Positions 1,096 to 20,796 are shown, counted from the first letter of the stretch. The stretch: DNA of 24,000 nt from Actinomycetota bacterium (GCA_009699245.1 WLOQ01000008.1:31136-55135); one strand, 5' to 3'. Program-made: numbers and translations. The notes: generated by a model from the letters alone, not told the origin.

Positions 1096-1169
<74 letters not shown>

Positions 1170-5314: not shown

Positions 5315-6295
5315 GTGAAGCAGGTCAGGCTGGGCAACACCGGGCTGCGCGTCTCGCGCCTGTGTCTCGGGATGATGAGTTACGGCAACGACTCCGACCG
5401 TCCGTGGGTGCTGGACGAGGAGGCCGCCGAGCCGATCATCAAGCGCGCCGTCGAAGCGGGCATCACGTTCTTCGACACCGCGAACGCCTACTCGCAGGGA
5501 ACGAGCGAGGTCGCCACGGGACGTCTGCTGCCGAAGTTCCTCAGCCGCGACGAGATGGTCGTCGCGACGAAGGTCTACATGCCGATGACGCCCGGCCCGA
5601 ATGGCGGGGGCCTGTCGCGCAAACACATCATGTCGGCGATCGACGCGTCGCTCACGCGCCTCGGCATGGACTACGTCGACCTCTACCAGATCCATCGCTG
5701 GAGCTACGGCACGCCGATCGAGGAGACAATGGAGGCGCTGAACGACATCGTCCGCGCCGGCAAGGCCCGCTACATCGGCGCGAGCAGCATGTTTGCCTGG
5801 CAGTTCATGAAGGCGCAGCAGGTCGCGAAGGAGCGCGGCTGGGCGCGGTTCATCTCGATGCAGAACCACTACAACCTCCTCTACCGCGAGGAGGAGCGCG
5901 AGATGCTCCCGATGTGCATCGACCAGGGCATCGGCGTGATCCCGTGGAGCCCGCTGGCGCGCGGCTGGCTCGCCGGGACGCGCACCCGCGAGGGCGAGCG
6001 CCGCACGACCCGCTCGGAGACCGACGCCTTCCAGGACGTCCTCTACGGCGCCGCGGAGGACTTCGACGTGATCGACCGGCTCGCCGAGGTCGCGGGCGCG
6101 CGTGGACTGCCGCAGGCGCAGGTCGGGCTCGCGTGGCTGCTCCACCGCCCCGCCGTCACGGCGCCGATCGTCGGCGCGACGAAGCTCTCTCACCTCGAGG
6201 ACGCGATCGCCGCCGAACAGACCGACCTCTCCGAGGAGGAGATGGCCCGCCTTGAGGAGCCGTACAAGCCGCATCCGGTGCTCGGGCACCAGTAG
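5315..6295 (+). CDS. Aldo/keto reductase family oxidoreductase
   Basis: GTG 5315 is preceded by GGAGGA (5303-5308). The N-terminus (M)KQVRLGNTGLRVSRLCLGMMSYG is the canonical AKR start. DTANAYS, YQIHRW and IPWSPLARGWL motifs are present. Confidence 0.9.
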   Translation: MKQVRLGNTGLRVSRLCLGMMSYGNDSDRPWVLDEEAAEPIIKRAVEAGITFFDTANAYSQGTSEVATGRLLPKFLSRDEMVVATKVYMPMTPGPNGGGLSRKHIMSAIDASLTRLGMDYVDLYQIHRWSYGTPIEETMEALNDIVRAGKARYIGASSMFAWQFMKAQQVAKERGWARFISMQNHYNLLYREEEREMLPMCIDQGIGVIPWSPLARGWLAGTRTREGERRTTRSETDAFQDVLYGAAEDFDVIDRLAEVAGARGLPQAQVGLAWLLHRPAVTAPIVGATKLSHLEDAIAAEQTDLSEEEMARLEEPYKPHPVLGHQ

Positions 6296-6316
6296 CCACC
6301 CGCCCGGTAGCGTGTC

Positions 6317-6341
6317 CGCGTCCCGCCGCCCGGCGGGCGCG
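6317..6341 (+). terminator. Short GC hairpin downstream of the AKR gene
   Basis: CGCG(T)CCCGCC / GGCGGGCGCG gives a 10-bp stem with one bulge and a 4-nt loop. There is no T-tract, so it may be only a weak or I-shaped terminator. Confidence 0.3.
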
Positions 6342-6364
6342 GGCCACACGCAAGGAGCTGCGAT

Positions 6365-7153
6365 ATGGGGATGACGGGACGCACGGCGATCGTGACGGGG
6401 GCGACCTCCGGTATCGGCGAGGCCACCGCGGAGCACTTCGCCGCACTCGGCGCCAAGGTCGTCGTCGCGGGCCGGGACGCTGAGCGCGGCCAGGCGGTCG
6501 TGGACCGCATCCGCGCGCACGGTGGCGAGGCGATCTTCGTCGCGCACGACCTCTCCGACCCTGAAGGCGCGAAGGCGCTCGTGGCGGCGGCCGAGGCGCA
6601 GTACGGCGTGATCGACATCGTCGTCGCCAACGCCGGGACCTTCTTCTTCGGTCCGCTGCCCGCCGTGACACTCGACGAGTTCGACACCGCGATGCGGATC
6701 AACGTGCGCGGCACCTACCTGCTCGCCCAGGCGGCACTGCCTGCGATGACGAAGAGCGACGCCGGGCGCTTCGTCCTCATGGGCACGTCGGGCGCCTCAC
6801 ACGGCGTCGCGATGGCCTCGCTCTACTGCATGAGCAAGGGCGCCCTGAAGGGCCTGATGGCGGCCCTCGTCCCCGAGTACGGGCCTGCGGGGATCACCGT
6901 GAACCTCATCGAGCCGGGCCTCGTCGAGACACCTCTCACCGCCCCGATGACCGGCACCGCGGAGGCGCGCGCGCCCTTCATCCCGCACCAGCCGACCGGC
7001 CGGATCGGCGTGCCGATGGACATCGCCCATACCGCCGCGATGCTCGCGGACGAGCTCGCCGGCCACATCAGCGGCCAGACGATCGTCGTCGATGGCGGCA
7101 ACACGCGCACCGCAAAGCACAGCGTGCTGCCACCGCCCCCGGACAAGCTCTAG
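6365..7153 (+). CDS. SDR-family oxidoreductase (short-chain dehydrogenase/reductase)
   Basis: AAGGAG lies 7 nt upstream of the ATG. TGATSGIG cofactor motif, ANAG, and a YCMSK catalytic Tyr-x3-Lys motif. Confidence 0.9.
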   Translation: MGMTGRTAIVTGATSGIGEATAEHFAALGAKVVVAGRDAERGQAVVDRIRAHGGEAIFVAHDLSDPEGAKALVAAAEAQYGVIDIVVANAGTFFFGPLPAVTLDEFDTAMRINVRGTYLLAQAALPAMTKSDAGRFVLMGTSGASHGVAMASLYCMSKGALKGLMAALVPEYGPAGITVNLIEPGLVETPLTAPMTGTAEARAPFIPHQPTGRIGVPMDIAHTAAMLADELAGHISGQTIVVDGGNTRTAKHSVLPPPPDKL

Positions 7154-7181
7154 GACGGTCCCCCGCCCTCGCGGCGCCGCG

Positions 7182-7940
7182 CTAGCCGAGCGGCGTCGCG
7201 TGGTGCTTCTTGCCGAGCCCGTCGTGGTAGAGGAGCACGTCGTCGGTGAGGACGACGAGCATGTGCTCCATGTCGAGGAACGACTCCTCGTCCGGTCGCA
7301 CGCGGCTCATGTACTCCGGCGATCCGAAGACCGTCGCGATGTCCTCGATGCGGGCGAAACCGATCTCCACTATCCCGTCCCACTGGGCGTCCATCTCGTT
7401 CTCGTACCCGTCGAGCGCGTGGTTCTGGACGTACTTCGTGACGAGACGGTCGGCCTCGGGGATGCCGAGGAAGATGTCCTTGTGGACGTGCTCCCAGTGG
7501 TGCCGGAAGTCGGCCCGCGTGGTGCCTTCCTTGTGACGGATGGCCGCCACGATCTTCACGGTCGTCGCGCCGGTGTCGCGCCCGACGAGCTCGCGGCAGA
7601 AGAGCGTGCGGTCGGCGATCGGCCCTTCGAACACGTCGAGCTCGTCGTCCATCAGCTCCTGGATGCGCGGATCCTCGAGCGCGGCAGGCAAGGCGTCCTC
7701 GCCGCGGAACCACACCATGCCCACGCCGTCGTACTCGTCCTGCTGGGCGACCTCGGCGAAGCCGGTCGGCTCGATGACCGAGCGCGGCAGCACGCGGCAC
7801 TGGCGGTAGTGCTCGATCTGGGCGAACAGCTCGAGATTGCGGGCGAAGCGCCCGTGCTGGCGCCAGCGCTCGGTCCACTCCTCACAGGAGTACGCCGCAC
7901 CGCGCTTCGTGATGTAGATCTGCTTCGGCTTCACGTCCAT
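7182..7940 (-). CDS. Tandem double-EthD-domain protein (dimeric alpha/beta-barrel superfamily), function unknown
   Basis: 252 aa from ATG 7940 (MDVKPKQIYITKRG...). It contains two repeats of the EthD-like pattern. The clearest is VKIVAAIRHKEGTTRADFRHHWEHVH...YVQNHAL...WDGIVEIGF...SPEY...DEESFLD. The upstream part of the listed 308-aa ORF is Arg/Cys-rich with no support. Confidence 0.7.
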   Translation of the reverse strand: MDVKPKQIYITKRGAAYSCEEWTERWRQHGRFARNLELFAQIEHYRQCRVLPRSVIEPTGFAEVAQQDEYDGVGMVWFRGEDALPAALEDPRIQELMDDELDVFEGPIADRTLFCRELVGRDTGATTVKIVAAIRHKEGTTRADFRHHWEHVHKDIFLGIPEADRLVTKYVQNHALDGYENEMDAQWDGIVEIGFARIEDIATVFGSPEYMSRVRPDEESFLDMEHMLVVLTDDVLLYHDGLGKKHHATPLG

Positions 7941-7989
7941 GCGGCGAACGCTATTGCATCCGCGGGGCCCTCGGGGATAGCGTCGCGGC
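7941..7989. promoter_or_regulatory. 49-bp divergent promoter region with mirror-image -10 hexamers
   Basis: Inverted repeat ACGCTAT (7948-7954) / ATAGCGT (7977-7983). Each arm reads TAGCGT (TAnnnT) on its own strand. The hexamers lie 6 nt upstream of ATG 7990 and 7 nt upstream of ATG 7940. Neither gene has a Shine-Dalgarno. Confidence 0.35.
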
Positions 7990-8709
7990 ATGGCCCAGAT
8001 CAAGCTCTTCGACCCGTTCACCCGCATCGACGGGACGACCCTCGAGCACTTCTCCACGCACTGGCACACGCGCCACGCGGAGATCGCCAAGGGCCTGCCG
8101 CAGATCAAGCACTACATCCAGAGCCACCGCCGCGAGGACGCGCCCGCGGCGCTCGGCGCCCCGCTCGGCGCGTGCTGGGCCGACGGCTCCTCGGAGACCT
8201 GGTACGACGGCCCGGAGGAGATCACGGCGATGTTCGAGCTCCCCGCGCTGACCGCGCTGATGGAGGACGAGCGCAACTTCATGGATACGCACCGCGAGCG
8301 CTACCACGTGATCACGCGCGAGCAGCACATCGACGGGCCGGAGCTCTCGCCCTGCACGGGCGTCAAGGCGCTCCTCTTCACGCGGCGTGACCCAGCACTC
8401 ACGCAAGAGGACTTCTTCGCCGCGTGGATCACCCCGGACGACGCCGAGCTCGGCAGGGCCGTCGGTGCCACGCGCCACGTCGTCTGCCCGCGCGTCGCCT
8501 CCCCGTTCGACCACCCGAACCCGGAGGTCGAGGAGTCCTCGCTGCCGCCGTTCGACGGTGTGCGCGAACTGTGGTGGGAGAGCACCGAGGCGCTTGCCGC
8601 CGGTGCCGCGGCCGACCCGGACGCCTGGGCCCGCCTCGTGCACCCGCCGACCGTCGATGCCGGCGGGTCGTTCGCGCTCTACGCCTCCGAGCGCCTGATC
8701 ATCCGCTGA
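7990..8709 (+). CDS. Tandem double-EthD-domain protein, function unknown
   Basis: 239 aa. Domain 1 is MAQIKLFDPFTRIDGTTLEHFSTHWHTRHAEI...HYIQSH...ETWYDGPEE...EDERNFMD. Domain 2 is VKALLFTRRDPALTQEDFFAAW...FDGVRELWWESTEA. Confidence 0.7.
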   Translation: MAQIKLFDPFTRIDGTTLEHFSTHWHTRHAEIAKGLPQIKHYIQSHRREDAPAALGAPLGACWADGSSETWYDGPEEITAMFELPALTALMEDERNFMDTHRERYHVITREQHIDGPELSPCTGVKALLFTRRDPALTQEDFFAAWITPDDAELGRAVGATRHVVCPRVASPFDHPNPEVEESSLPPFDGVRELWWESTEALAAGAAADPDAWARLVHPPTVDAGGSFALYASERLIIR

Positions 8710-8713
8710 GCGC

Positions 8714-10399
8714 TCAGGCGGCGGCGCCGCGGCGCTCGATGACGTCCTCGGCGGCGATGTAGCCGAACGTCATCGAGTGCGAGATCGAGGCACCCGGCGC
8801 CGGGTAGATGCGCCCGTGCACCGACGCGGCCGAACAGCCGCTCGCATAGAGCCCTTCGATGATCGAGCCGTCCTCGCGCAGGACGCGGGCCCGGGTATCG
8901 GTGACGAGGCCGCCGACGGTGCTCACGTCCGTGACGATCTGCCCGACGGCGTAGAACGGGCCCTTCTCGATCGTGCCGAGGTTGTTGCTGCCCTTGTTGT
9001 TCGGATCGCCGAAGTAGCGGTCGTACCGCGTCTCCCCGCGATGGAAGTCCTCGTCCTTGCCGTTGCGGGCGAAGCCGTTGAACCGCTCGACCGTGGCACG
9101 CAGGCCCGTGGCGTCGATCCCGCACATCGCGGCGAGCTCCTCAAGCGTGTCGGCCTTCTTGAGGAAGCCGCTCTCCAGCCACGCCTTCGGCGTCTGCGCC
9201 GGCGGCGCGGTGACGAACGGGTAGCGCTTGCGGTGGCGGCTGTCGAAGATGAGCCAGCTCGGCAGCGCCTTGCCGGTTTCCAGGTTGCGGCGGAGCATGT
9301 GCTGCCCGGCCTCCATGTAGGGGCCCGACTCGTTCATGTACCGCTGGCCGTCGCCGTCGACGATAATCGAGTGCGGGAGCGAGCGCTCCCAGATCCCGAG
9401 CATGGGGGTGCCGTCGAGCAGCGGGGCGGGGAGCCAGATCGCCTCGTCGAGGTTCGACGTCGCGGCCCCGATGCCGAGGCCGGCGCGCAGCGCGTCGCCC
9501 TCGTCGCCGGGGTTCGCGACGGTCCAGCCGCCGTCGATCGGATCGGGCTGGTACTCCTCGCGCAGCTCCTTGTTGCGAGCGAACCCGCCCGCTGCCAGGA
9601 GGACGCCGTGGCGCGTGCGGACCTCGATCCGGCGCCCGTCGCGCTCGACGACGGCACCGACGACGCGCCCATCCTCGATGAGCAGGTCGCGCATCGGCGT
9701 CTCGCGCCACACATCGATGCCGCGCTGCTGCATGACGATGAGGATCTGGCCGACGAGGGCCTGGCCGAGTGTGAGGAGCTTGCGCTTGCGCGCCTTGGCC
9801 TTCACGTCGCGGCCGATGAGCTTCACCATGCGGGCGAAGTTCTTCGGGTTGCGGAAGGCCAGCACAGCGGTCGCCGAGTCGTCCGTCTGCAGGGCGATCG
9901 GCATCGCGAGCGGCGACGGGCGCAGGTACGGCTCCCACGCGCCGATCTCGTCCTTGTGGATGATCGTCGCCTCGAGCGCGCGGCCCTGGACCATGCCGAA
10001 CGGTGCGTCCGGGTAGTCGTCAGGCGACGCCGAGTAGCGCAGCCGGACGCCCTGCGACTTGAGGAAGTCAAGCATCCGCAGGTTGCCCTCGAGGTACGCG
10101 ACCTTGCGCTCGCGCGTGGTCGCCGGGCCGGCATCGCCGACGACGGCGTCCAGGTAGGCGAGGCCACGCTCGAGCGTGTCGTGGTAGCCCTCGGCGAGCA
10201 GGTACTCGTTCGCCGGCGCCCAGACGACGCCGCCGGACATCGCGGTCGAGCCGCCGATGTACTCGGTCTTCTCGACGACGAGCGCATCGAGGCCCGCCTC
10301 CTTCGCCTTCATCGCGGCCAGCAGACCGCCGCCGCCGGTACCGACGATCAGGAAGTCCTTCTCGATGACCTCGGCGGCCACCCCGTGTGTCTCAGACAT
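8714..10399 (-). CDS. FAD-dependent oxidoreductase, FAD_binding_2 family (3-oxosteroid 1-dehydrogenase/KstD-like)
   Basis: 561 aa. GAGGAG lies 5 nt upstream of the ATG. The N-terminal Rossmann motif is DFLIVGTGGGGLLAAMKAKEAGLDALVVEKTEYIGGSTAMSGGVVW. The C-terminal GLYASGCSAAS... is typical of this flavoprotein family. Confidence 0.85.
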   Translation of the reverse strand: MSETHGVAAEVIEKDFLIVGTGGGGLLAAMKAKEAGLDALVVEKTEYIGGSTAMSGGVVWAPANEYLLAEGYHDTLERGLAYLDAVVGDAGPATTRERKVAYLEGNLRMLDFLKSQGVRLRYSASPDDYPDAPFGMVQGRALEATIIHKDEIGAWEPYLRPSPLAMPIALQTDDSATAVLAFRNPKNFARMVKLIGRDVKAKARKRKLLTLGQALVGQILIVMQQRGIDVWRETPMRDLLIEDGRVVGAVVERDGRRIEVRTRHGVLLAAGGFARNKELREEYQPDPIDGGWTVANPGDEGDALRAGLGIGAATSNLDEAIWLPAPLLDGTPMLGIWERSLPHSIIVDGDGQRYMNESGPYMEAGQHMLRRNLETGKALPSWLIFDSRHRKRYPFVTAPPAQTPKAWLESGFLKKADTLEELAAMCGIDATGLRATVERFNGFARNGKDEDFHRGETRYDRYFGDPNNKGSNNLGTIEKGPFYAVGQIVTDVSTVGGLVTDTRARVLREDGSIIEGLYASGCSAASVHGRIYPAPGASISHSMTFGYIAAEDVIERRGAAA

Positions 10400-10418
10400 G
10401 CGTTCTCCTCAGGAGTGA

Positions 10419-12173
10419 TCAGGCGGTTACGGGCTCGCGCGCCGGCTCCTTCGCGGCGTGCATACCCGCAAAGTGGCCGTTGACGATCGCCGGGCCGAGC
10501 GTGCTGCCGCCGCCCCAGTAGGCCGCGCCGGCCGGGGAGCCGATGCAGTTGCCCGCGCCGTAGAGGCGCGGGATGGGCCTGCCGTCCTTGCGCACGACCT
10601 GGCTGTCCGTGTTGATCCGCGGACCGCCCTTCGTGCCCAGGCACGATGCGCCGAGGATGACCGCGTAGTACGGACCCTCCTCGCGCAGCGGGTGCATCGT
10701 GACGTTCGGCATCGGGTTCTCACGCGTCGGCGGCGTCCAGTAGACGTCGGTGACCGTCGCGCCGCGGCCGAAGTCCTCGTCCTTGCCGGCACGGGCGAAC
10801 CCGCTGAAGCGCTCAACGGTCTTCGGGAGCTGGTCGGTGAAGCCGTCCTTCAGCTGGAACCCACCGGTGTGCGGGGCGAGCTTGTCGAGCCGTGCGCGGA
10901 TCGCGTCCCCGAGCTCCTCGAGCGTGTCGCCCTTGATGACCTCGGGCGCGTCGACGCCGGGCTCCGGAACGGGCCAGCGCGACGGCCAGAGGATGTCGTC
11001 CTGCGCGACGTCCTCATCCCAGATCATGAAGAGGAGGTAGTTCGGCAGGCTGCCGTCCGCATCGCGCACGAAGTGCGCCTTGCCGCGCTCGTTGTAGAAG
11101 AGCTTCTCGTTCGTGACGCGATTGCCCTCGGCGTTGACCATGAGCATCGAGTCGCCGTAGGCGAAGCCCATGAGCGTCCCCTGCTCAAAGCTCTCCAGGC
11201 ACGGCTCGAGCGGGAGCTCGGTCCACCAGGCCTCCTCCGTGTTGTGGAGGTCGGCGCCGAGCTTCTCGCCGATGGCGATGAAGTCGCCGCGGTTCGTCGC
11301 CACGCCGCACGTGCCGACGATCGGCCCGCGCAGAAAGCGCTCGCGCAGATCGGCGTTGTGCTCGAAGCCGCCGCTGGCGAAGATCACGCTGCGCTTGGCA
11401 TCGATCGTGATCTGGCCGTCGGGCGTGTCCACGATGACGCCGGAGATCTCGCCAGCGGCATCGGTCGTGATGTCGACGACGCGGTGCTCGGTGAGGAGCT
11501 CAGCGCCATGGCGTCGCGCGGATGCGAGCAGCATGCGCACGAGGTCGCCGCCGTCGCCGCTGATCTGGCCCTGGCCCTGCATCGCGGCGGAGTCGAGGTT
11601 CGGGCCGGCCTCGGCGACGTCGGACTCGAGGTCGGTGTCGACACCCTCACGCGAGGTGAAGGCGACGATGTGGTCGGAGGCCCCGGCGGCCGCAACATCC
11701 GTCGGGACGGGCGCGAGCAGGCGGCCGTAGACCTCGCCGTCCTCCTCGGTGACGAACCACGGCGGCAGCCCCTGATCGCCGCCCTGGAAGCACTCCATGA
11801 ACTGGCTGTGCAGGTCGCCGTTCTCGTGGAAGAGCTCGAGCACCTCGGCGGCGTTGTCGTAGAAGAACGTCATGAGATCCCACTCGGCCTGGCCGACGCC
11901 GTGGCGCTCGGCACCGCGGTCGTAGTGCTGCGGGTAGCTGAGCTTCGCCATGTGCGCGAGGGCGCGGTCGCGGTCGTCGATGAGCCCACGCTCGAGCATC
12001 ACCTTGTTGCGCGGCACCCAGTAGCCACCGGATGACTTGAGCGTCGTGCCGCCCGGGGCAGCTGCGGCCTCCAGGACGACGACGGACGCGCCGGCGCGCC
12101 CTGCGGTGATCGCGGCTGCGAGGCCGGAAGCACCGGCACCCACCACGACGATGTCATAGGACTTCGAGCTCAT
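10419..12173 (-). CDS. FAD-dependent oxidoreductase, FAD_binding_2 family (KstD-like), distant paralog of the downstream gene
   Basis: ATG 12173 is preceded by AAGGAGAGAGAG. MSSKSYDIVVVGAGASGLAAAITAGRAGASVVVLEAAAAPGGTTLKSSGGYW; C-terminal RLYGAGNCIGSP. ATG 12218 would add 15 aa but has no RBS. Confidence 0.85.
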   Translation of the reverse strand: MSSKSYDIVVVGAGASGLAAAITAGRAGASVVVLEAAAAPGGTTLKSSGGYWVPRNKVMLERGLIDDRDRALAHMAKLSYPQHYDRGAERHGVGQAEWDLMTFFYDNAAEVLELFHENGDLHSQFMECFQGGDQGLPPWFVTEEDGEVYGRLLAPVPTDVAAAGASDHIVAFTSREGVDTDLESDVAEAGPNLDSAAMQGQGQISGDGGDLVRMLLASARRHGAELLTEHRVVDITTDAAGEISGVIVDTPDGQITIDAKRSVIFASGGFEHNADLRERFLRGPIVGTCGVATNRGDFIAIGEKLGADLHNTEEAWWTELPLEPCLESFEQGTLMGFAYGDSMLMVNAEGNRVTNEKLFYNERGKAHFVRDADGSLPNYLLFMIWDEDVAQDDILWPSRWPVPEPGVDAPEVIKGDTLEELGDAIRARLDKLAPHTGGFQLKDGFTDQLPKTVERFSGFARAGKDEDFGRGATVTDVYWTPPTRENPMPNVTMHPLREEGPYYAVILGASCLGTKGGPRINTDSQVVRKDGRPIPRLYGAGNCIGSPAGAAYWGGGSTLGPAIVNGHFAGMHAAKEPAREPVTA

Positions 12174-12258
12174 CTCTCTCTCCTTCATGTGAGCCAACGG
12201 AATGTTGACGTTGACCATAAAGGAGATGCAGCGGCGGAGCCGCGGGCGCGGGGAGGCG

Positions 12259-13068
12259 CTACGCGTCGGCGAACTTCGGCGCGCGCTTCTCGAGTACAGC
12301 GGCGCGGCCCTCGAGTGAGTCCGGGTGCCCGGAGAGGCGCGCGGTCGCCCGCTGCTCGATCTCGTAGCCGGTCTTGACGTCGAGGAACTCCACCTGGTTG
12401 AGGACCTCCTTCGCCTGGCGCAGCGCGGCCCCGCTGTGCACGGCCATCCGCGCGGCGAGCGCGCGGGCGGTGTCGAGGAGCTCCGCGTCAGGGACGACCG
12501 AGTCGATCCCGCCGAACTGGACGAGGTCGGCGGCCGGCACCGGCTCGGCCGTGTAGTACATGCGGCGCATGATGTGCTCCGGCACGACGCGCGCGAGGTG
12601 GCGGGCGGCGCCCATCACGCCGATGCTCACCTCGGGCGTGACGAGCCGCGCGCTCTCGCCGCAGATGATCACGTCGCAGAGCGAGCAGAGTGAGACGCCG
12701 GTGCCGGCCGCGACGCCCTGGACCGCGGCGATCGTCGGGATCGGGCAGTCGTAGACCGAGGAGAACGCCTCACGCACGAGCTTCATGCGCGCCGGTGAGT
12801 TCTGCAGCGTCATCGTGCCGAACTCGTCGAGGTCGTTGCCCGCGCAGAAGTGCTTGCCCTCCCCGCGGAAGATGACCACGCGCGCGCCGGGCATGAGCTC
12901 GTCCGCCCAGGTGAAGCAGTCACGGATCTCGCCGTACATCTTCTGGTTGACGGCGTTCACCGGCGCACGCGTCATCGAGACCGTCGCGATCGGGCCGTCC
13001 TGCTCGATGCGCAGGAACTCGAAGCTGTTCTCGGCGCCCTTGGCGCTCGTGGCGGTGGTGAGGCTCAT
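12259..13068 (-). CDS. Enoyl-CoA hydratase/isomerase (crotonase) family protein
   Basis: 269 aa from ATG 13068 (MSLTTATSAKG...). VVIFRGEGKHFCAGNDL oxyanion-hole motif and a crotonase-fold-length body. The listed 396-aa ORF extends into the upstream SDR gene in a different frame and is not credible. Confidence 0.85.
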   Translation of the reverse strand: MSLTTATSAKGAENSFEFLRIEQDGPIATVSMTRAPVNAVNQKMYGEIRDCFTWADELMPGARVVIFRGEGKHFCAGNDLDEFGTMTLQNSPARMKLVREAFSSVYDCPIPTIAAVQGVAAGTGVSLCSLCDVIICGESARLVTPEVSIGVMGAARHLARVVPEHIMRRMYYTAEPVPAADLVQFGGIDSVVPDAELLDTARALAARMAVHSGAALRQAKEVLNQVEFLDVKTGYEIEQRATARLSGHPDSLEGRAAVLEKRAPKFADA

Positions 13069-13079
13069 GGCGGGAAACC

Positions 13080-13811
13080 CTACCGCGGTCCGAGCTCGTC
13101 CCCGGCGCGCATGAAGACGATCTCGGGGACGACGGTCCCCTGCGAAAGATGCAGCAGCCAGCGCACGGTCGCGGCCATGTCCTCGGGCCGCAGCATGTCC
13201 TCCTGGGCGACCGTGTCGCGCAGGAACTCCGTCATGTCGGTGTCGACCCAGAAGGGGCAGAGCGCATGCGAGATGACGCCCTGCGTACTGAACTCCTTGT
13301 TCATCGCCTCGGTGTACGCGACAAGCCCGGCCTTCGCCGCCGAGTACACGGAGATCCACGGCTGACCGGCCCGACCGGCGATCGACGACATGTTGATCAC
13401 ACGCGCACCGCGATGCTCGGCGCCGGCTTCGAGCAGGAGCGGGAGGCACTCGCGATAGAGGAGGATCGGCGCGCGCAGGTTCACCGCGAGCTGGAGGTCG
13501 AGCAGCTTCGTGCGGTGCTCGGTCGCGGGCGCTCCGGCACCGAGGCCCGCGTTGTTCACGAGCACATCGAGGCGGCCATAGCGCTCGCGGTGGCTGCTCA
13601 CGATCTCGACGATCGCGGCCTCCTCGACGAGGTCGCCGGTGACCGTGTGGACCTGAGCCCCGCCGGCGCGCAGCGCCGCCGCGGCCTCCTCGAGCGCCTC
13701 GGCGCGCCGCGCCGTGAGCGTCAGCGCGTACCCCTCGTCAGCGAGGACCCTCGCGATCTCAAGTCCGATCCCGCGGGACCCTCCGGTGATCAGTGCTACG
13801 CGCTGCGCCAT
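13080..13811 (-). CDS. SDR-family oxidoreductase
   Basis: 243 aa. ITGGSRGIG, NNAG and YSAAK motifs of classical SDRs. Confidence 0.9.
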   Translation of the reverse strand: MAQRVALITGGSRGIGLEIARVLADEGYALTLTARRAEALEEAAAALRAGGAQVHTVTGDLVEEAAIVEIVSSHRERYGRLDVLVNNAGLGAGAPATEHRTKLLDLQLAVNLRAPILLYRECLPLLLEAGAEHRGARVINMSSIAGRAGQPWISVYSAAKAGLVAYTEAMNKEFSTQGVISHALCPFWVDTDMTEFLRDTVAQEDMLRPEDMAATVRWLLHLSQGTVVPEIVFMRAGDELGPR

Positions 13812-14704: not shown

Positions 14705-15844
14705 CTAGGGCGCCGTCGCGAAGACGAAGTTCCCGGCCGAGCTGACCTGCAGCACGCCGAGGAACGGGAGGGTCTTGCGGTAGCCGGTCTTCGGGCTGAT
14801 CGTGATCTTGCCCGTCTGGCCGGGGACGTTCTTCGTCCGGCGCAGCTGCCTGAGGACCTTCGTGTAGTTCGTGCTGTGCGCCCTGCGGATCGCGCGGAAG
14901 AGGACGTTCGCGGAGTCGTAGGTGAAGACGCCCCAGACGCCCGGCGCCGTCTTGAACGCCTTGCGGTAGGCCTTGACGAAGCGCCTCGCGCTCGGCAGGC
15001 GCGTCGCCTCCGGCACACCGGTGAACGTGCAGCGCTGGCTCGTCGAGATGCCCGCGCCGCTGATGAAGCCGGCGTCGATGTTGCCGAGGCTCATGTGGCA
15101 CGGCGTTGCAGAACCGCTGGCGACGATCGCCTTGGCGATCTCGACGCCCTCGGGGAAGTACGTGCTCGAGTAGATGACGTCCGCGGAGTTCGCGAGTGCC
15201 TCTGCGACCTTCGTCGCGTAGTAGCCGTCGGCGGCGTCGGCCATCTCGACGATCTGCACCCAGTTGACCGTCACACCCTTGGCCTCAAGGAGCGAGCGCA
15301 GTTGCTCGGCGATGCCCTTCGTGTAGGCGCCGTTGGCGCTCGTGTCGACGAGCATCGTCACCTTGTCGTAGCCCTTGCCGAGCAGGTACGAGGCCTCGAC
15401 GGGGGCGACCTGGCTGTTCATTGGCTGGAGCGTGATGCCGGCGCCCTGGGTGTCGTCGTTCGACGTCATCCACAGCGGGGTCACGCGGGCCTTGCGATAC
15501 AGCGGCAGGTTGAGCAGGCCGACCGAGGAGTTGTACGGCCCGATGATGGCGTCGGGGCCCTCGGCGACGACGTCGTCCGCCACGGAGACCGCGTTCGCGC
15601 TGTCGCCCTTGTCGTCACCCTTGATGAGCACGACCTTGCGCCCGAGCACGCCGCCCTTGGCGTTGACCTGGCGCACGGCGAGCTGGACGCCGCGGAGCAT
15701 GTCCACGCCGTTCGAGGACTGCGGGCCGGAGATCGGCGCCTCGACGGCGAGGCGGATCGGCGCCTTGCCACCGGCGTGCGCGGCGGGGGCTGCCACGAGC
15801 AGCGCGAGCGCCGCAACGGGGATGAGACGGGTCAGACGGGACAC
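14705..15844 (-). CDS. ABC-transporter periplasmic substrate-binding protein, Leu/Ile/Val-binding (Peripla_BP_6-like) family
   Basis: GTG 15844 lies 6 nt downstream of GAGGA; GTG 15850 is the longest alternative. Signal peptide RLIPVAALALLVAAPAAHA|GG. IRLAVEAPISGPQSSNGVDMLRGVQLAVRQVNAKGGVLGRKV matches the family consensus. No permease or ATPase genes are nearby. Confidence 0.85.
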   Translation of the reverse strand: MSRLTRLIPVAALALLVAAPAAHAGGKAPIRLAVEAPISGPQSSNGVDMLRGVQLAVRQVNAKGGVLGRKVVLIKGDDKGDSANAVSVADDVVAEGPDAIIGPYNSSVGLLNLPLYRKARVTPLWMTSNDDTQGAGITLQPMNSQVAPVEASYLLGKGYDKVTMLVDTSANGAYTKGIAEQLRSLLEAKGVTVNWVQIVEMADAADGYYATKVAEALANSADVIYSSTYFPEGVEIAKAIVASGSATPCHMSLGNIDAGFISGAGISTSQRCTFTGVPEATRLPSARRFVKAYRKAFKTAPGVWGVFTYDSANVLFRAIRRAHSTNYTKVLRQLRRTKNVPGQTGKITISPKTGYRKTLPFLGVLQVSSAGNFVFATAP

Positions 15845-15931
15845 GGACACTCCTCAGAAGGTGGGATTGCTCGCGGGAGCGTACAACCGCTGCCCGGGCG
15901 GTGCGCCGGGCCGTGCGCGAAGATCGCAGCC

Positions 15932-16705
15932 ATGCCCGCACTCGACCCTGCTGTCGCTCGCCGGCTGTGGCGCTGGAATGTCGGCGTCGGCGGCCTGCAC
16001 CTCGTCCAGGCGATCGTCCTACTCGTCATCGCGGGCGCCGCGACCCTCCCGGTGACGGCGAGCTACATGCTCGGCCCGCCCGGCGAGGGCAGCTACGGCG
16101 GACCGAAGGACCTCTTCGATCTGCGAATCGATCTCGCCATCGCTGCATTCCTGCTGCTCGCGGCGGTCGATCACCTCGGGACCGCGGTGCGGCCGCTGCG
16201 GCCGTGGTACGAGGCGAACGTCGCGCGTGGGATGAACCCCGCTCGGTGGTGGGAGTACTCGATCAGCGCCTCGCTGATGGTCGTGCTGATCGCGATGCTC
16301 TCGGGGATGACGGAGCTCGTTGCGCTCGTCGCCCTCTTCGGCGTCAACGCGTCGATGATCCTCTTCGGTCTCGTCATGGAGCGCGTGAACGTGGGGCGCG
16401 AGGCAGTGGACTGGCGGCCGTTCATCTTCGGCTGCATCGCCGGGGCCGTGCCGTGGATCGCGATCGGGATCCAGCTGATCGTCTCGACGACCGAGGGCGA
16501 CGGGGTCCCTGGGTTCGTCTTCGCCATCTTCGTCACGCTCTTCGTGCTCTTCAACACGTTCGCGATCAACATGTGGCTCCAGTACCGCGGGCGCGGCCGC
16601 TGGGCCGACCCCGTGTTCGCGGAGCGCGTCTATCTGATCTTGAGCCTCGTGGCGAAGAGCGCGCTCGCCTGGCAGGTCTACGGCGGCGCGCTCGCGGGGT
16701 CCTGA
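15932..16705 (+). CDS. Heliorhodopsin (retinal-binding seven-helix photoreceptor)
   Basis: 257 aa from ATG 15932; the upstream 352 codons of the listed ORF are antisense to the SBP gene. It is collinear with heliorhodopsin 48C12 as I remember it. Shared motifs are GLHLVQ (His23), RWWEYSISASLM (Glu108), FGVNASMILFG, FGCIAGAVPWI, VPGFV and LSLVAKSALAWQ (Lys242, codon 16655-16657). Confidence 0.9.
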   Translation: MPALDPAVARRLWRWNVGVGGLHLVQAIVLLVIAGAATLPVTASYMLGPPGEGSYGGPKDLFDLRIDLAIAAFLLLAAVDHLGTAVRPLRPWYEANVARGMNPARWWEYSISASLMVVLIAMLSGMTELVALVALFGVNASMILFGLVMERVNVGREAVDWRPFIFGCIAGAVPWIAIGIQLIVSTTEGDGVPGFVFAIFVTLFVLFNTFAINMWLQYRGRGRWADPVFAERVYLILSLVAKSALAWQVYGGALAGS

Positions 16706-16712
16706 CCGAGCG

Positions 16713-17534
16713 TCAGCCGGTGAAGCGGCCGTCGCGGATGCGCTCGGCCTCCATGATCGCCAGCTCGTGGCCGCCGGGGACGACGATCTCCGGGTCCGGC
16801 ACGAAGTTCACCGCGGGGTCGCGACCCACGTAGTCGACCGCGTTGAGGATGACCTTCATCGCCTCGAGGCGCGCGAGATGCTTGTCCTCGGAGCGCACAA
16901 TCGTCCACGGGGCGTCGTTCGTGCTCGTGCGCTTGAGCATCCGGTACTTCATCTCCGTGAACTCGTCCCAGTGCTCCTGCGCCTGGACGTCGATCTCGCT
17001 GAGCTTCCACTCGCGCAGCGGGTCGGAGCGGCGGCGGTCGAACCGGCGCGCCTGCTCCTCTTTGGTGACGGAGAAGTAGAGCTTCACGAGGATCGTGCCC
17101 TGGCGCACGAGGTCCTTCTCAAAGCCGGTCACACCGCGCATGAACGCCTGGTACTCGTCGTCGGTGCAGAACCCGAAGATCGGCTCGACGACGGCGCGGT
17201 TGTACCAGGAGCGGTCGAAGAGGACCATCTCGCCGCCGTGCGGGAACTGCTCGACGTAGCGCTGGAAGTACCACTGCGTGCGCTGCGTCTCGGACGGCTT
17301 GCCGAGCGCGACGACGCGGTAGTGCTTCTCGTTCATGTAGCGCGTGACGCGCCGGATCGTCCCGCCCTTGCCGGCCGCGTCGCGGCCCTCGAAGAGCACG
17401 ATCATGCGGCGGCCCTGCTGCTCGAGATGCCGCTGGAGCTTGAGCAGCTCCACCTGATACGGGCGCAGGGTGAGCTCCTGGCGGCGGCGCCGCACCGCCT
17501 TGCGCTCGTCCGGGGTGCCGCTCTCCGTATCCAT
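16713..17534 (-). CDS. ppk2: Polyphosphate kinase 2 (PPK2), single-domain
   Basis: 273 aa. IVLFEGRDAAGKGGTIRRV (Walker A), WYFQRY and LFDRSWYNRAVVE motifs are characteristic of PPK2. Confidence 0.9.
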   Translation of the reverse strand: MDTESGTPDERKAVRRRRQELTLRPYQVELLKLQRHLEQQGRRMIVLFEGRDAAGKGGTIRRVTRYMNEKHYRVVALGKPSETQRTQWYFQRYVEQFPHGGEMVLFDRSWYNRAVVEPIFGFCTDDEYQAFMRGVTGFEKDLVRQGTILVKLYFSVTKEEQARRFDRRRSDPLREWKLSEIDVQAQEHWDEFTEMKYRMLKRTSTNDAPWTIVRSEDKHLARLEAMKVILNAVDYVGRDPAVNFVPDPEIVVPGGHELAIMEAERIRDGRFTG

Positions 17535-18522: not shown

Positions 18523-20796
18523 GTGCTTCGACGTGTCCTCGCGCTCAGCGCGCTCGTGCTCGGCGTGGCCGCCCCCACCGCGGGCGCCGCGACGACCCTG
18601 AACGTCATCCCGCACGGCAACAGGGCGCCGGGTGTCTCCTGGGGCGGCGTCCCGGGCATGCTCCCTGCGGACACCTAGGCGAAGATGTACGACCGCCTGA
18701 CCCCGCTCTTTCGCAGCGTCACGGACGCCGCGCTCGTGCCGAGCACCGACGGTACCGGCTACTTCAAGTCCGCCGCGATCCTGCAGGAGAACGACCCGTC
18801 GTTCATCGTCAGCCAGACGGTCAGCGGGCGCGTCGGCGGGAAGACGGTCAGCGCGCGGATCAAGCGCGACGCCTACGGCGTGCCGTTCGTCTTCAGCGGC
18901 AGCGACGCCGGCGCGATCTTCGCCGCGGGCTACGTCGTCGCGACCGACCAGGCGCTGCTGCTCACGCAGGCGCGCTTCAACGGCCGCGCCGCGCTGATCG
19001 ACATGCCCGGCGTCTCCGCGATCCGGCTCGTCCTCGGGCTCTACAGCTATACGCCGAACGCGCGCATCGTGGCCGCTGCCGCGAGGCTCCAGACGAAGAA
19101 CATCCTGGCCCAGGGGGCACGCGGCAAGCAGCTCCTGCGCGACATCGACACGTACATCGCCGGCATCAACAAGCGCCTGAAGGAGGCGTCGCCGAGCGTG
19201 GCGAAGTTCACGCGCACCGACATCTACGCCCTCAACGCGATCAAGGCGCAGTTCCTCGGTGAGGGCGGCGGGAACGAGACGCAGAACGCGCTCTTCCTCA
19301 GCCAGCTGCGCACCACGCTCGGCGCGACGCGCGGCGATGGCGCCTTCAAGGACCTCCAGGCACGGGACGACCCGGAGGCCTCCGTCACGACGACGAAGGC
19401 CTTCCCCGCGCAGACCGCCGTGAGCGTCACGAGCCCGAAGGGCATGGTCCGGCTGCGCGCCGGCAGCTTCCGCTCCGCGTCCGTGACGCTGCCCGGGTCA
19501 TCCGGTCTGCGGGCGCTCCAGGACCCGAATCCCACGGGTCCGCGCCAGCTCGCGAGCAACATCCTGATCGTCTCGGGGTCGCGCTCGGCGACCGGCACGC
19601 CCGTCTTCGTCGGCGGTCCGCAGATCGGCTACAACTACCCCGGCCTGACGCTCGAGATGTAGCTGAGCAGCCCGGGCATCTCGGTCCGCGGCGCGACGAC
19701 GGCGCCCTACCCCGGCTACATGCTCATCGGTCGCGGGAAGGCGTTCGCCTGGACGCTCACCTCGGCCGGCGCCGACATCATCGACACGTACGCCGAGACG
19801 CTCTGCGGCGGGTCGAAGACGAAGTACCTCTTCAAGGGCCGCTGCCGCAGCATGGAGAAGGTCGCTGCGGGGACGATCTCGTTCGGCGCCGCGAAGACGT
19901 CGGCCACCTTCCACCGCACGGTCCACGGGCCGGTGATCGGCTACGCGACCGATGCGACCACTGGCAAGACGGTCGCGCTCTCGCGCCGTCGCTCGACCTA
20001 CGGCCGTGAGACGGTCGACCTGCTGTTCAACCAGCAGCTCACCTACGGCCGCGTCCACAACGCCCGCGAGTTCGTCAAGGCGGCGCAGAAGCCGCCGCAG
20101 ACCTTCAACTCGTTCTACGTGAGCGCCACCGAGTCGGCGTTCACCACGACGGGCCTGATGCCGATGCGGCCCGCCGGGGTCAATCCGACCCTGCCCGTCG
20201 ACGGCCGCGGGACGTACGAGTGGCGCGGCTTCCTCTCGGCGGCGGCGCATCCGTCCGCGATCAACCCCGCGAGCGGCCTGATCGTCAACTGGAACAACAA
20301 GCCGGCGAAGGACTTCCCCGCCGGTGACGGCCGCTTCGGCAGCGAGGGCGGGCTCCAGCGCAACCTGCTCCTGACGACGGAGCTGGCGCGCTACCCGAAG
20401 GCGAAGCTCGCGGACGCGGCCATGTGCACGACGCTCGGGGAGCAGGCCTGCTCCGAGCTGCGCGGCATGATCGGCATCTTCGACGCGCCCCTGGGCGGCG
20501 GCTACGGCGGCTGGCACCAGTACATGTGGAAGGACCTGCGCAGCGTCCTCGGGCAGAGCGTGACGGCGCCCTACACGGTGCGCTACTGCGGCGCCGGGGT
20601 CCTCGCAACATGCGCCGGCGACCTCTGGGCGGCCATCGCCGCCGGCGCCGCGGAGGCGGTCCCGGCCCTCGGCGCCGACCCGGCGGCATGGCAGGAGGCC
20701 GTGACCACCGTCGGGTTCTCCCCGGTCTCGCGTTACACGATGCAGTGGACCAACCGGCCGAGCGGCATCCACCAGGTCATGTCCTTCGGGCAGTGA
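18523..20796 (+). pseudogene. Penicillin acylase/amidase (Ntn-hydrolase) family gene with two in-frame TAG codons
   Basis: A single frame runs from GTG 18523 (AGGAGGA 5 nt upstream) to TGA 20794-20796. Sec signal peptide VLRRVLALSALVLGVAAPTAGA. Family motifs include YGVPFVF, the nucleophile region LASNILIVSGSRSATG (Ser codon 19555-19557), GGPQIGYNYPG and GRGKAFAWTLT. TAG codons at 18676-18678 and 19660-19662 split it into the listed 325-aa and 358-aa ORFs plus a 51-codon signal-peptide piece. Confidence 0.75.

Follow-up and report, generated by a model that had tools for sequence, protein, structure and literature searches.

The gene at positions 15932–16705 (plus strand) of a 24,000-nucleotide stretch of DNA from an Actinomycetota bacterium (GCA_009699245.1 WLOQ01000008.1:31136-55135), hereafter called the window, encodes, with near certainty, a heliorhodopsin. 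Very probably, it is a functional heliorhodopsin of a freshwater, monoderm actinobacterium with high guanine–cytosine (GC) content, of the Solirubrobacterales/Thermoleophilia type. As to its role, we lean toward a regulatory photoreceptor, a slow-cycling light sensor that would act on a partner protein, by analogy with characterized members of the family.

Family assignment and gene boundaries

The coding sequence starts with ATG at 15932, comprises 257 codons and ends with TGA at 16703–16705. Its product has seven transmembrane helices, and its AB loop forms a beta-hairpin. The Pfam family Heliorhodopsin (PF18761) was matched over profile positions 1–242 of 242 (E 1.2e-93, 313 bits vs. a cut-off of 26.7), and the NCBIfam equivalog "heliorhodopsin HeR" (NF038020) over positions 2–244 of 244 (296.4 bits vs. 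a cut-off of 100). A phmmer search of PDB sequences aligned residues 11–254 to residues 11–253 of the heliorhodopsin 48C12 (6su3, 6uh3, 9ljj; E ~6e-62), followed by TaHeR (6is6; E 4e-54) and the eukaryotic Cv06 (9vfc; E 5e-42). An initial annotation of the window had proposed an end-to-end alignment with 48C12; both this alignment and the family assignment are borne out by the significant, full-length matches.

An AlphaFold2 model built from 38 sequences (mean predicted local distance difference test score 89.9) contained seven helices, and the AB-loop hairpin was modeled as two long strands (residues 38–47 and 54–65). In a Foldseek comparison, the model superimposed on 48C12 (6su3) with a template modeling (TM) score of 0.91 and a root-mean-square deviation of 2.0 Å, and on TaHeR (7u55/6is6) with TM scores of 0.87–0.92. 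The predicted structure thus agrees with the family assignment as well. The alternative of a type-1 microbial rhodopsin (PF01036) was rejected: this family was not matched at E ≤0.01, helix 7 carries SxxxK instead of DxxxK, and the best type-1 rhodopsin reached a TM score of ≤0.67 at 10–17% identity.

In the mechanical ORF list (ORF, open reading frame), the heliorhodopsin frame runs on from GTG 14876, which results in an ORF of 609 amino acids (aa). The GC content of the window is 70%, and its real genes show GC fractions of about 0.65/0.48/0.93 at codon positions 1/2/3. Along the 609-aa ORF, this pattern changes at ATG 15932, from 0.93/0.51/0.64 (14876–15931) to 0.67/0.47/0.92 (15932–16705). 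The first 352 codons (14876–15931, plus strand) are non-coding and represent the antisense shadow of a solute-binding protein gene plus the intergenic spacer, because their codon-position GC is the mirror image of that of a gene, no Pfam family matched the upstream 352 aa, and the gene on the opposite strand has a GC fraction of 0.96 at third codon positions (GC3). The initial annotation had described a 257-codon heliorhodopsin at the end of a 609-aa shadow ORF, and the GC switch together with the Pfam-silent 5' part confirms this description. Two further overlapping ORFs, 15901–16833 (plus strand) and 16171–16572 (minus strand), were dismissed as genes, as they had no Pfam match and the wrong codon-position GC. 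The locus illustrates how shadow ORFs in high-GC DNA can mask the true start of a short gene.

The ratio of nonsynonymous to synonymous substitution rates (dN/dS) was 0.15 between the heliorhodopsin gene and its 89%-identical orthologue in locus L002, and the start codon lies at the same position in both. The gene is thus maintained and under purifying selection.

Relatives and host

The protein itself is already in a public database, under the name "unannotated protein [freshwater metagenome]", encoded on the 926,986-bp scaffold MEHR18-2_SAMN08331103 scaffold_6; the identification made here corrects this database entry. Identity drops to 89% for the next relative and to 70–80% for hundreds of others. 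Of 8000 scored candidates, 5032 passed E 1e-10, and 3019 representatives in a 50%-identity library passed E 0.001. With one genome per species considered, the best loci were found in an Actinomycetota metagenome-assembled genome (MAG; 89%), followed by MAGs of Solirubrobacterales, Paraconexibacter, Thermoleophilaceae, and Gaiellaceae. The nearest loci being from Actinomycetota and Solirubrobacterales, the GC content of 70% and the F420-type enzymes encoded nearby fit an actinobacterial, monoderm host for the scaffold; heliorhodopsins have been reported to be restricted to monoderms (PMC8612252). The protein is a typical, previously unannotated member of a very large known family, in a type of host in which this family is common.

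Some of the related loci carried unexpected taxonomic labels. Two lake-water MAG contigs titled "Bifidobacterium breve" (L025 and L026) carry a Solirubrobacterales-type heliorhodopsin (67–68% identity), and these titles are almost certainly wrong. Locus L055 contains tandem heliorhodopsin genes (6001–6741 and 6947–7687) in a MAG labeled Trueperaceae (Deinococcota). This is odd given the restriction to monoderms and may reflect a binning error.

Conserved residues and predicted topology

Residues were mapped to 48C12 position by position from the HMMER alignment (48C12 residues in brackets). The core residues His23 (His23), His81 (His80), Glu108 (Glu107), and Lys242 (Lys241) are all in place. 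Lys242, the retinal Schiff-base lysine (AAG, 16655–16657, plus strand), lies in the motif S238-x-x-x-K242 of transmembrane helix 7, which aligns to S237/K241, and was invariant in 120 of 120 close proteins and 77 of 77 genome loci. Glu108, the single Schiff-base counterion (GAG, 16253–16255, plus strand), belongs to the helix 3 motif E108/S112/L119 (E107/S111/L118) and is invariant in the family alignment. His23 (CAC, 15998–16000, plus strand) pairs with His81 in the Schiff-base cavity; His81 is encoded together with Asp80, a clade-specific carboxylate, at 16169–16174 (GAT-CAC, plus strand). The initial annotation had assigned Lys242 and Glu108 to the columns of the Schiff-base lysine and the counterion, and the alignment placed them there. 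The other features that it quoted, His23, His81, and the motifs RWWEYS, FGVNASMILFG, FGCIAGAVPWI, and LVAKSALAWQ, were all found as given.

Kovalev et al. (2020) listed 17 polar residues conserved across heliorhodopsins. Fourteen of them are identical in the present protein (Asn16, His23, His81, Tyr93, Asn102, Arg105, Trp106, Glu108, Tyr109, Ser112, Glu150, Gln217, Glu231, and Ser238), while three are changed (Ser76 to Ala77, Tyr226 to Pro227, and Gln213 to Met214). Methionine in place of Gln213 is a common variant in the family (Kovalev et al., 2020). The polar cavity of 48C12 (His23, His80, Asn16, Tyr92, Asn101, Tyr108, Glu230, and Arg104) and the region of its Glu149 are fully conserved. 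The Glu108 counterion is predicted to be held by Ser112 and Ser238.

Segments predicted to lie on the cytoplasmic side contain about 17 lysine and arginine residues, compared to two in the predicted extracellular loops. The arginines on the cytoplasmic side are Arg87, 90, 99, 105, 151, 156, 162, 219, 221, 223, and 232. On the extracellular side, the helix interiors carry no charged residue, and only Asp67 and Glu128 are found, both at helix ends. This predicted charge distribution fits the inverted topology, where the N-terminus faces the cytoplasm.

The same residues bear on a role in light-driven or light-gated proton transport, similar to that of the viral V2HeR3. Transport does exist in the family, since viral heliorhodopsins transport protons (PMC9448325). 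The statement in the initial annotation that pumping has not been demonstrated for heliorhodopsins thus no longer holds for the family as a whole; the protein described here is devoid of the hallmark residues: Glu191 and Trp195, which define the V2HeR3 group, correspond to Leu203 and Phe207 in helix 6. The Schiff-base cavity of the clade does contain an additional carboxylate, Asp80, but the charge-free helix interiors on the extracellular side argue against transport, and bacterial and archaeal heliorhodopsins of such a make-up showed none (PMC9448325). We consider proton transport by this protein extremely improbable.

A signature of Thermoleophilia-type heliorhodopsins

To place the exchanged residues, an alignment was made of 120 closely related database proteins plus 77 genome loci. 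Ala77, Asp80, Ala104, Trp107, Ala113, and Pro227 occur in essentially all of the 120 closest proteins (Asp80 in 119) and are thus not private to the present sequence. Among the loci L002–L032, which stem from Solirubrobacterales-type and Gaiellales-type MAGs, Ala77, Asp80, Ala104, and Ala113 were found in 30 of 30, Trp107 in 26 of 30, and Pro227 in 25 of 30. Ala77 and Asp80 always occurred together, so that the S-x-x-(A/F)-H of canonical members is A-x-x-D-H in every sequence of the clade. More distant loci mostly combine serine, alanine or phenylalanine, and histidine, or are missing both histidines in one Thermoleophilia branch. The variant is also frequent beyond the clade alignment: aspartate occupied the column of Asp80 in 36 of the best 150 representatives at 50% identity, and the A-D-H combination was seen in 11 of the 88 full-length ones.

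In 48C12, Ser76 is one of two serines that stabilize the counterion, Tyr226 stabilizes Arg104, and position 79 helps to shape the hydrophilic cavity next to the Schiff base. Because of the roles of Ser76 and position 79, the clade would have lost a counterion-stabilizing hydroxyl group and gained a carboxylate beside His81 in the Schiff-base cavity. No tested heliorhodopsin with the Ala77/Asp80 pair was found, and the structurally solved proteins 48C12, TaHeR, and Cv06 do not carry it. The 13 spectrally characterized natural heliorhodopsin variants come from taxa other than Thermoleophilia, and no relevant work on heliorhodopsins of Thermoleophilia taxa was retrieved in a search of the literature. 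For 48C12, a discrete proton acceptor was not identified (Kovalev et al., 2020), and neither 48C12 nor TaHeR displays a protonated-carboxyl C=O band (about 1700–1760 cm-1) in the M state (PMC9448325). We tentatively propose, as a possibility rather than an expectation, a large Thermoleophilia-type subfamily with the signature His23-Ala77-Asp80-His81-Ala104-Trp107, in which the counterion-stabilizing serine would have been exchanged for an aspartate one turn of the helix away, within the Schiff-base cavity. This Asp80 might serve as a discrete proton acceptor or shift the pKa of the counterion. If this is true, the Ala77/Asp80 subfamily would have a distinct photocycle or output. The present gene is a representative of this subfamily, and the signature is the only point that we would recommend for follow-up by specialists.

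Within the Ala77/Asp80 clade, His23 has been lost in several loci, with alanine in L014, L015, L019–L021, and L023–L026 and phenylalanine in L016, L018, and L022. These freshwater lineages without His23 still keep Asp80-His81, and judged by this pattern Asp80 might replace part of the histidine pair in them. A separate Thermoleophilia branch, 43–46% identical to the present protein, has leucine at both histidine positions (23 and 80) and glycine at position 103, while the counterion glutamate and the Schiff-base lysine are kept (L044, L054, L057, L060, L063, L065–L067, L069–L071, L074, and L076–L080).

For the 48C12 subfamily, Kovalev et al. (2020) discussed a light-dependent enzyme, with the Schiff-base cavity or the Glu150 region as active site. 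The cavity residues are conserved in the present protein, and Asp80, Ala104 (in place of Phe103), and Ala77 would render the cavity larger and more acidic. However, no enzymatic activity has been reported for any heliorhodopsin in the literature examined, and the gene neighborhood suggests no substrate. An enzymatic function is accordingly rated as very unlikely.

Proposed mode of action

A regulatory photoreceptor is favored, with modest confidence, because three studies described regulation of partner proteins through positively charged cytoplasmic loops, and the loops of the present protein are rich in arginine. The lack of the V2HeR3 transport hallmarks likewise speaks for a sensor or regulator. 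The partners are glutamine synthetase for AbHeR, photolyase for TfHeR, and the ABC exporter OmrDE for OcHeR (PMC11109279 for the exporter), and all were up-regulated. The initial annotation had mentioned isolated reports of interactions with glutamine synthetase and photolyase; both are indeed in the literature, to which regulation of the exporter has now to be added.

The steps of the mechanism are derived from 48C12, TaHeR, AbHeR, TfHeR, and OcHeR. The protein would bind all-trans-retinal, either from a pathway encoded elsewhere in the genome or from an external source, and green light would isomerize it. The Schiff-base proton would then move to the internal water-filled cavity, which holds Asp80 in the Ala77/Asp80 clade, and would not be released from the protein. 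A long-lived intermediate would alter the arginine-rich cytoplasmic loops, and this change would in turn modulate the partner protein.

With respect to the chromophore, no crt, blh or type-1 rhodopsin genes were found in the window or in the 2.7 kb past its end (26.7 kb in total). The absence of genes for retinal synthesis from the 24 kb, as claimed initially, therefore holds and extends beyond the window. Chromophore genes are not expected near a heliorhodopsin gene, because surveys report that blh is rarely adjacent: in a preprint, Chazan et al. found blh to be rare beside heliorhodopsin genes, and blh and heliorhodopsin to co-occur in genomes mostly when other rhodopsins are present.

Several observations weigh against this reading of the gene as a functional, regulatory heliorhodopsin. 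The 26.7 kb contain no recognizable retinal pathway, and no partner gene shares an operon with the heliorhodopsin gene. As indicated by the alignment, the replacements of Ser76 by alanine and of Tyr226 by proline may render the photochemistry different from that of model heliorhodopsins. Moreover, light harvesting via bound xanthophylls, rather than light sensing, is advocated for the family in a 2025 preprint.

According to this preprint (Kornilov et al., 2025), an exogenous xanthophyll antenna is bound at a lateral fenestration next to the retinal ring and passes energy to the retinal. The site, reported to be present in 91% of the family, comprises F162, C166, G169, F206, N207, and A210 in 48C12; the corresponding residues F164, C168, G171, F207, N208, and A211 of the present protein are all identical, and the fenestration residues are near-invariant in the clade. 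An exogenous antenna would also explain why carotenoid genes need not be nearby. For heliorhodopsins, however, the proposal is derived from docking and the comparison of structures, not from binding measurements. It is silent on the use of the absorbed energy, and the hydrophobic extracellular half offers no evident path for transport. An antenna would be compatible with a sensory role instead of replacing it. We therefore regard light harvesting as the function of this protein as unlikely, and retain the regulatory photoreceptor as the favored role.

A side observation from the related loci touches on carotenoids. In at least seven of them, the heliorhodopsin gene is immediately preceded by a co-oriented gene with a fasciclin domain (PF02469); these loci are mostly Chloroflexota MAGs plus one actinomycete, and the pairing is absent from the window. 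Fasciclin genes were located at L040 5234–5878, L045 5146–5874, L051 3595–4212, L062 113–673, L064 4809–5483, L039 1–327, and L012 5246–6019 and 3316–3849, and also at L008 8691–9209 and L017 9092–9658. AstaP, a water-soluble carotenoid carrier, is a fasciclin-domain protein. A likeness of the fasciclin neighbors to AstaP would fit the idea of exogenous xanthophylls. No paper mentioning both fasciclin and heliorhodopsin was found in the literature collection searched.

Genetic context

Upstream of the heliorhodopsin gene and divergent from it lies a gene for a secreted solute-binding protein of the branched-chain amino-acid/urea type (14705–15844 or 15850, minus strand; Peripla_BP_6, PF13458, E 7e-41; GC3 0.96). 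All of its NCBIfam matches remained below the cut-off, the public gene call has 379 aa, and no permease or ATPase gene adjoins it. Downstream, a gene for polyphosphate kinase 2 (PPK2; 16713–17534, minus strand; PF03976, E 3e-86; TIGR03707, 326 bits vs. a cut-off of 302) is convergent with the heliorhodopsin gene. The stop codons of the two genes (16703–16705 and 16713–16715) are 7 nt apart without a terminator-like site; a perfect 8-nt inverted repeat (16657–16664/16686–16693) is found inside the 3' end of the heliorhodopsin gene. As it is flanked by a divergent gene, across an 87-bp spacer, and by a convergent gene, the heliorhodopsin gene is a single-gene unit.

The conservation of this neighborhood was explored by tblastn, with 20 proteins of the window as queries against 80 related genome loci, and by all-against-all clustering of neighboring ORFs within 4 kb. 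The order MFS transporter, LLM oxidoreductase, binding protein, heliorhodopsin was shared only with L002. PPK2 was not adjacent to heliorhodopsin in any related locus (4.4 kb away in L005). The all-against-all comparison revealed no neighbor family recurring with the heliorhodopsin of the window, and the recurring neighbors of other subclades (pentapeptide-repeat, RDD, DUF1330, MarR, DAO, and fasciclin) were absent from the window. Genes for glutamine synthetase (glnA), photolyase (phr), an ABC permease or ATPase, or an ABC exporter were likewise absent from the window, where the orphan binding protein is the only ABC-type component. The synteny comparison suggested by the initial annotation thus yielded one conserved arrangement but no functional lead, and synteny was abandoned as a route to function. 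The partner of the putative photoreceptor cannot be named from the locus, because the gene stands alone between divergent and convergent neighbors and its neighborhood is not conserved. With thousands of close relatives in addition, this locus is of little help in understanding heliorhodopsin function.

These data also allow an assessment of whether the heliorhodopsin works with an adjacent gene, exerting light control on the divergent solute-binding protein or the convergent PPK2. Enzymes and an ABC transporter are among the known targets of heliorhodopsins, and the pair of binding protein and heliorhodopsin is kept in L002 together with its short spacer. Synteny with one close relative, however, is expected from shared descent alone; PPK2 is missing from the neighborhood in L002, and neither gene is adjacent in the other 79 loci. 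Neither neighbor is co-oriented with the heliorhodopsin gene, so there is no operon. Furthermore, the binding protein is extracellular, whereas the known interactions occur through cytoplasmic loops. A functional link to either neighbor is consequently judged highly unlikely.

The divergent intergenic spacer (15845–15931) measures 87 bp, or 81 bp with GTG 15850 as the start of the binding protein. The initial annotation had pointed to an 8-bp bulged hairpin at 15892–15911. This hairpin did not withstand scrutiny as a regulatory element: the surrounding 90 nt (15851–15940) folded at −40.9 kcal/mol compared to −40.5 ± 3.6 for shuffled sequences (z = −0.11; 84 of 200 shuffles folded as well), the hairpin lies outside the minimum-energy fold, and its arms are not conserved in L002. 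It is also missing from the list of inverted repeats of ≥8 nt, which holds eight pairs in 1.2 kb. Neither a sigma-70-like promoter nor an intrinsic terminator was detected in 15600–17000, and the spacer had no Rfam match.

The only upstream block conserved between the window and L002 is TGCGCGA(A/G)GAT (~15914–15924), with its end 7 nt upstream of the ATG. Within it, L002 has GAGGA, well spaced for a Shine-Dalgarno sequence, and the window has the weaker GAAGA; the block is probably a degenerate ribosome-binding site. The earlier view that a Shine-Dalgarno sequence is missing is roughly right for the copy in the window. Alternatively, the block could be read as the −10 box (nAnnnT; GAAGAT here, GAGGAT in L002) of a leaderless transcript. 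A weak Shine-Dalgarno sequence is the simpler reading, because the block in L002 has a good GAGGA core 7 nt before the ATG.

The other genes of the window code for a LysR regulator, two MFS transporters, an aldo-keto reductase, an SDR, two F420-dependent LLM oxidoreductases, a TreT-type glycosyltransferase, and an AI-2E transporter. A tRNA gene (1096–1169, plus strand; Rfam RF00005, 70.7 bits) separates the LysR regulator from the first MFS transporter. The region 7182–13811 encodes two EthD proteins, two large FAD_binding_2 dehydrogenases (KstD/fumarate-reductase-like), an enoyl-CoA hydratase, and a second SDR. This cluster looks like a lipid or steroid-type catabolic module, and nothing was seen that ties it to the heliorhodopsin. 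A penicillin amidase (PF01804) is distributed over two ORFs in the same frame on the plus strand, 18685–19662 (profile positions 2–204) and 19720–20796 (profile positions 225–421), with an in-frame stop at 19660–19662; the public gene calls are split in the same way. Possible explanations are a pseudogene, an assembly error, and an enzyme that is split by nature.

Comparison with characterized heliorhodopsins

48C12, from an actinobacterial fosmid of Lake Kinneret (PDB 6su3, 6su4, 6uh3, and 9ljj), shares 45% identity over 242 aligned residues with the present protein, along with the AB-loop hairpin, the lysine, the glutamate, the histidine pair, and the fenestration residues. The two differ by the loss of one of the two counterion-holding serines (Ser76 to Ala77) and in Phe79 to Asp80, Phe103 to Ala104, Val106 to Trp107, Tyr226 to Pro227, and Gln213 to Met214, and Tyr179 of the dimer interface is replaced by Gln181. 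TaHeR, from the Thermoplasmatales archaeon SG8-52-1 (PDB 6is6, 7u55, and 7clj), resembles the present protein in the network around the retinal Schiff base and in the hydrophobic extracellular half. In contrast to the actinobacterial protein, this archaeal heliorhodopsin has alanine at the position of Asp80 and keeps the equivalent of Ser76. With V2HeR3, the counterion glutamate and the equivalent of Glu231 (E215 in V2HeR3) are shared, whereas the Glu191/Trp195 gate is absent from the present protein and its extracellular half lacks polar residues.

Among the heliorhodopsins with reported partners, AbHeR and OcHeR come from Actinobacteria, like the present protein, and TfHeR from Trichococcus. 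For these three, the partner is encoded in the same operon as the heliorhodopsin, whereas the gene described here stands alone. Common to all of them and to the present protein are positively charged cytoplasmic loops, which formed the binding surface for the partner in those studies.

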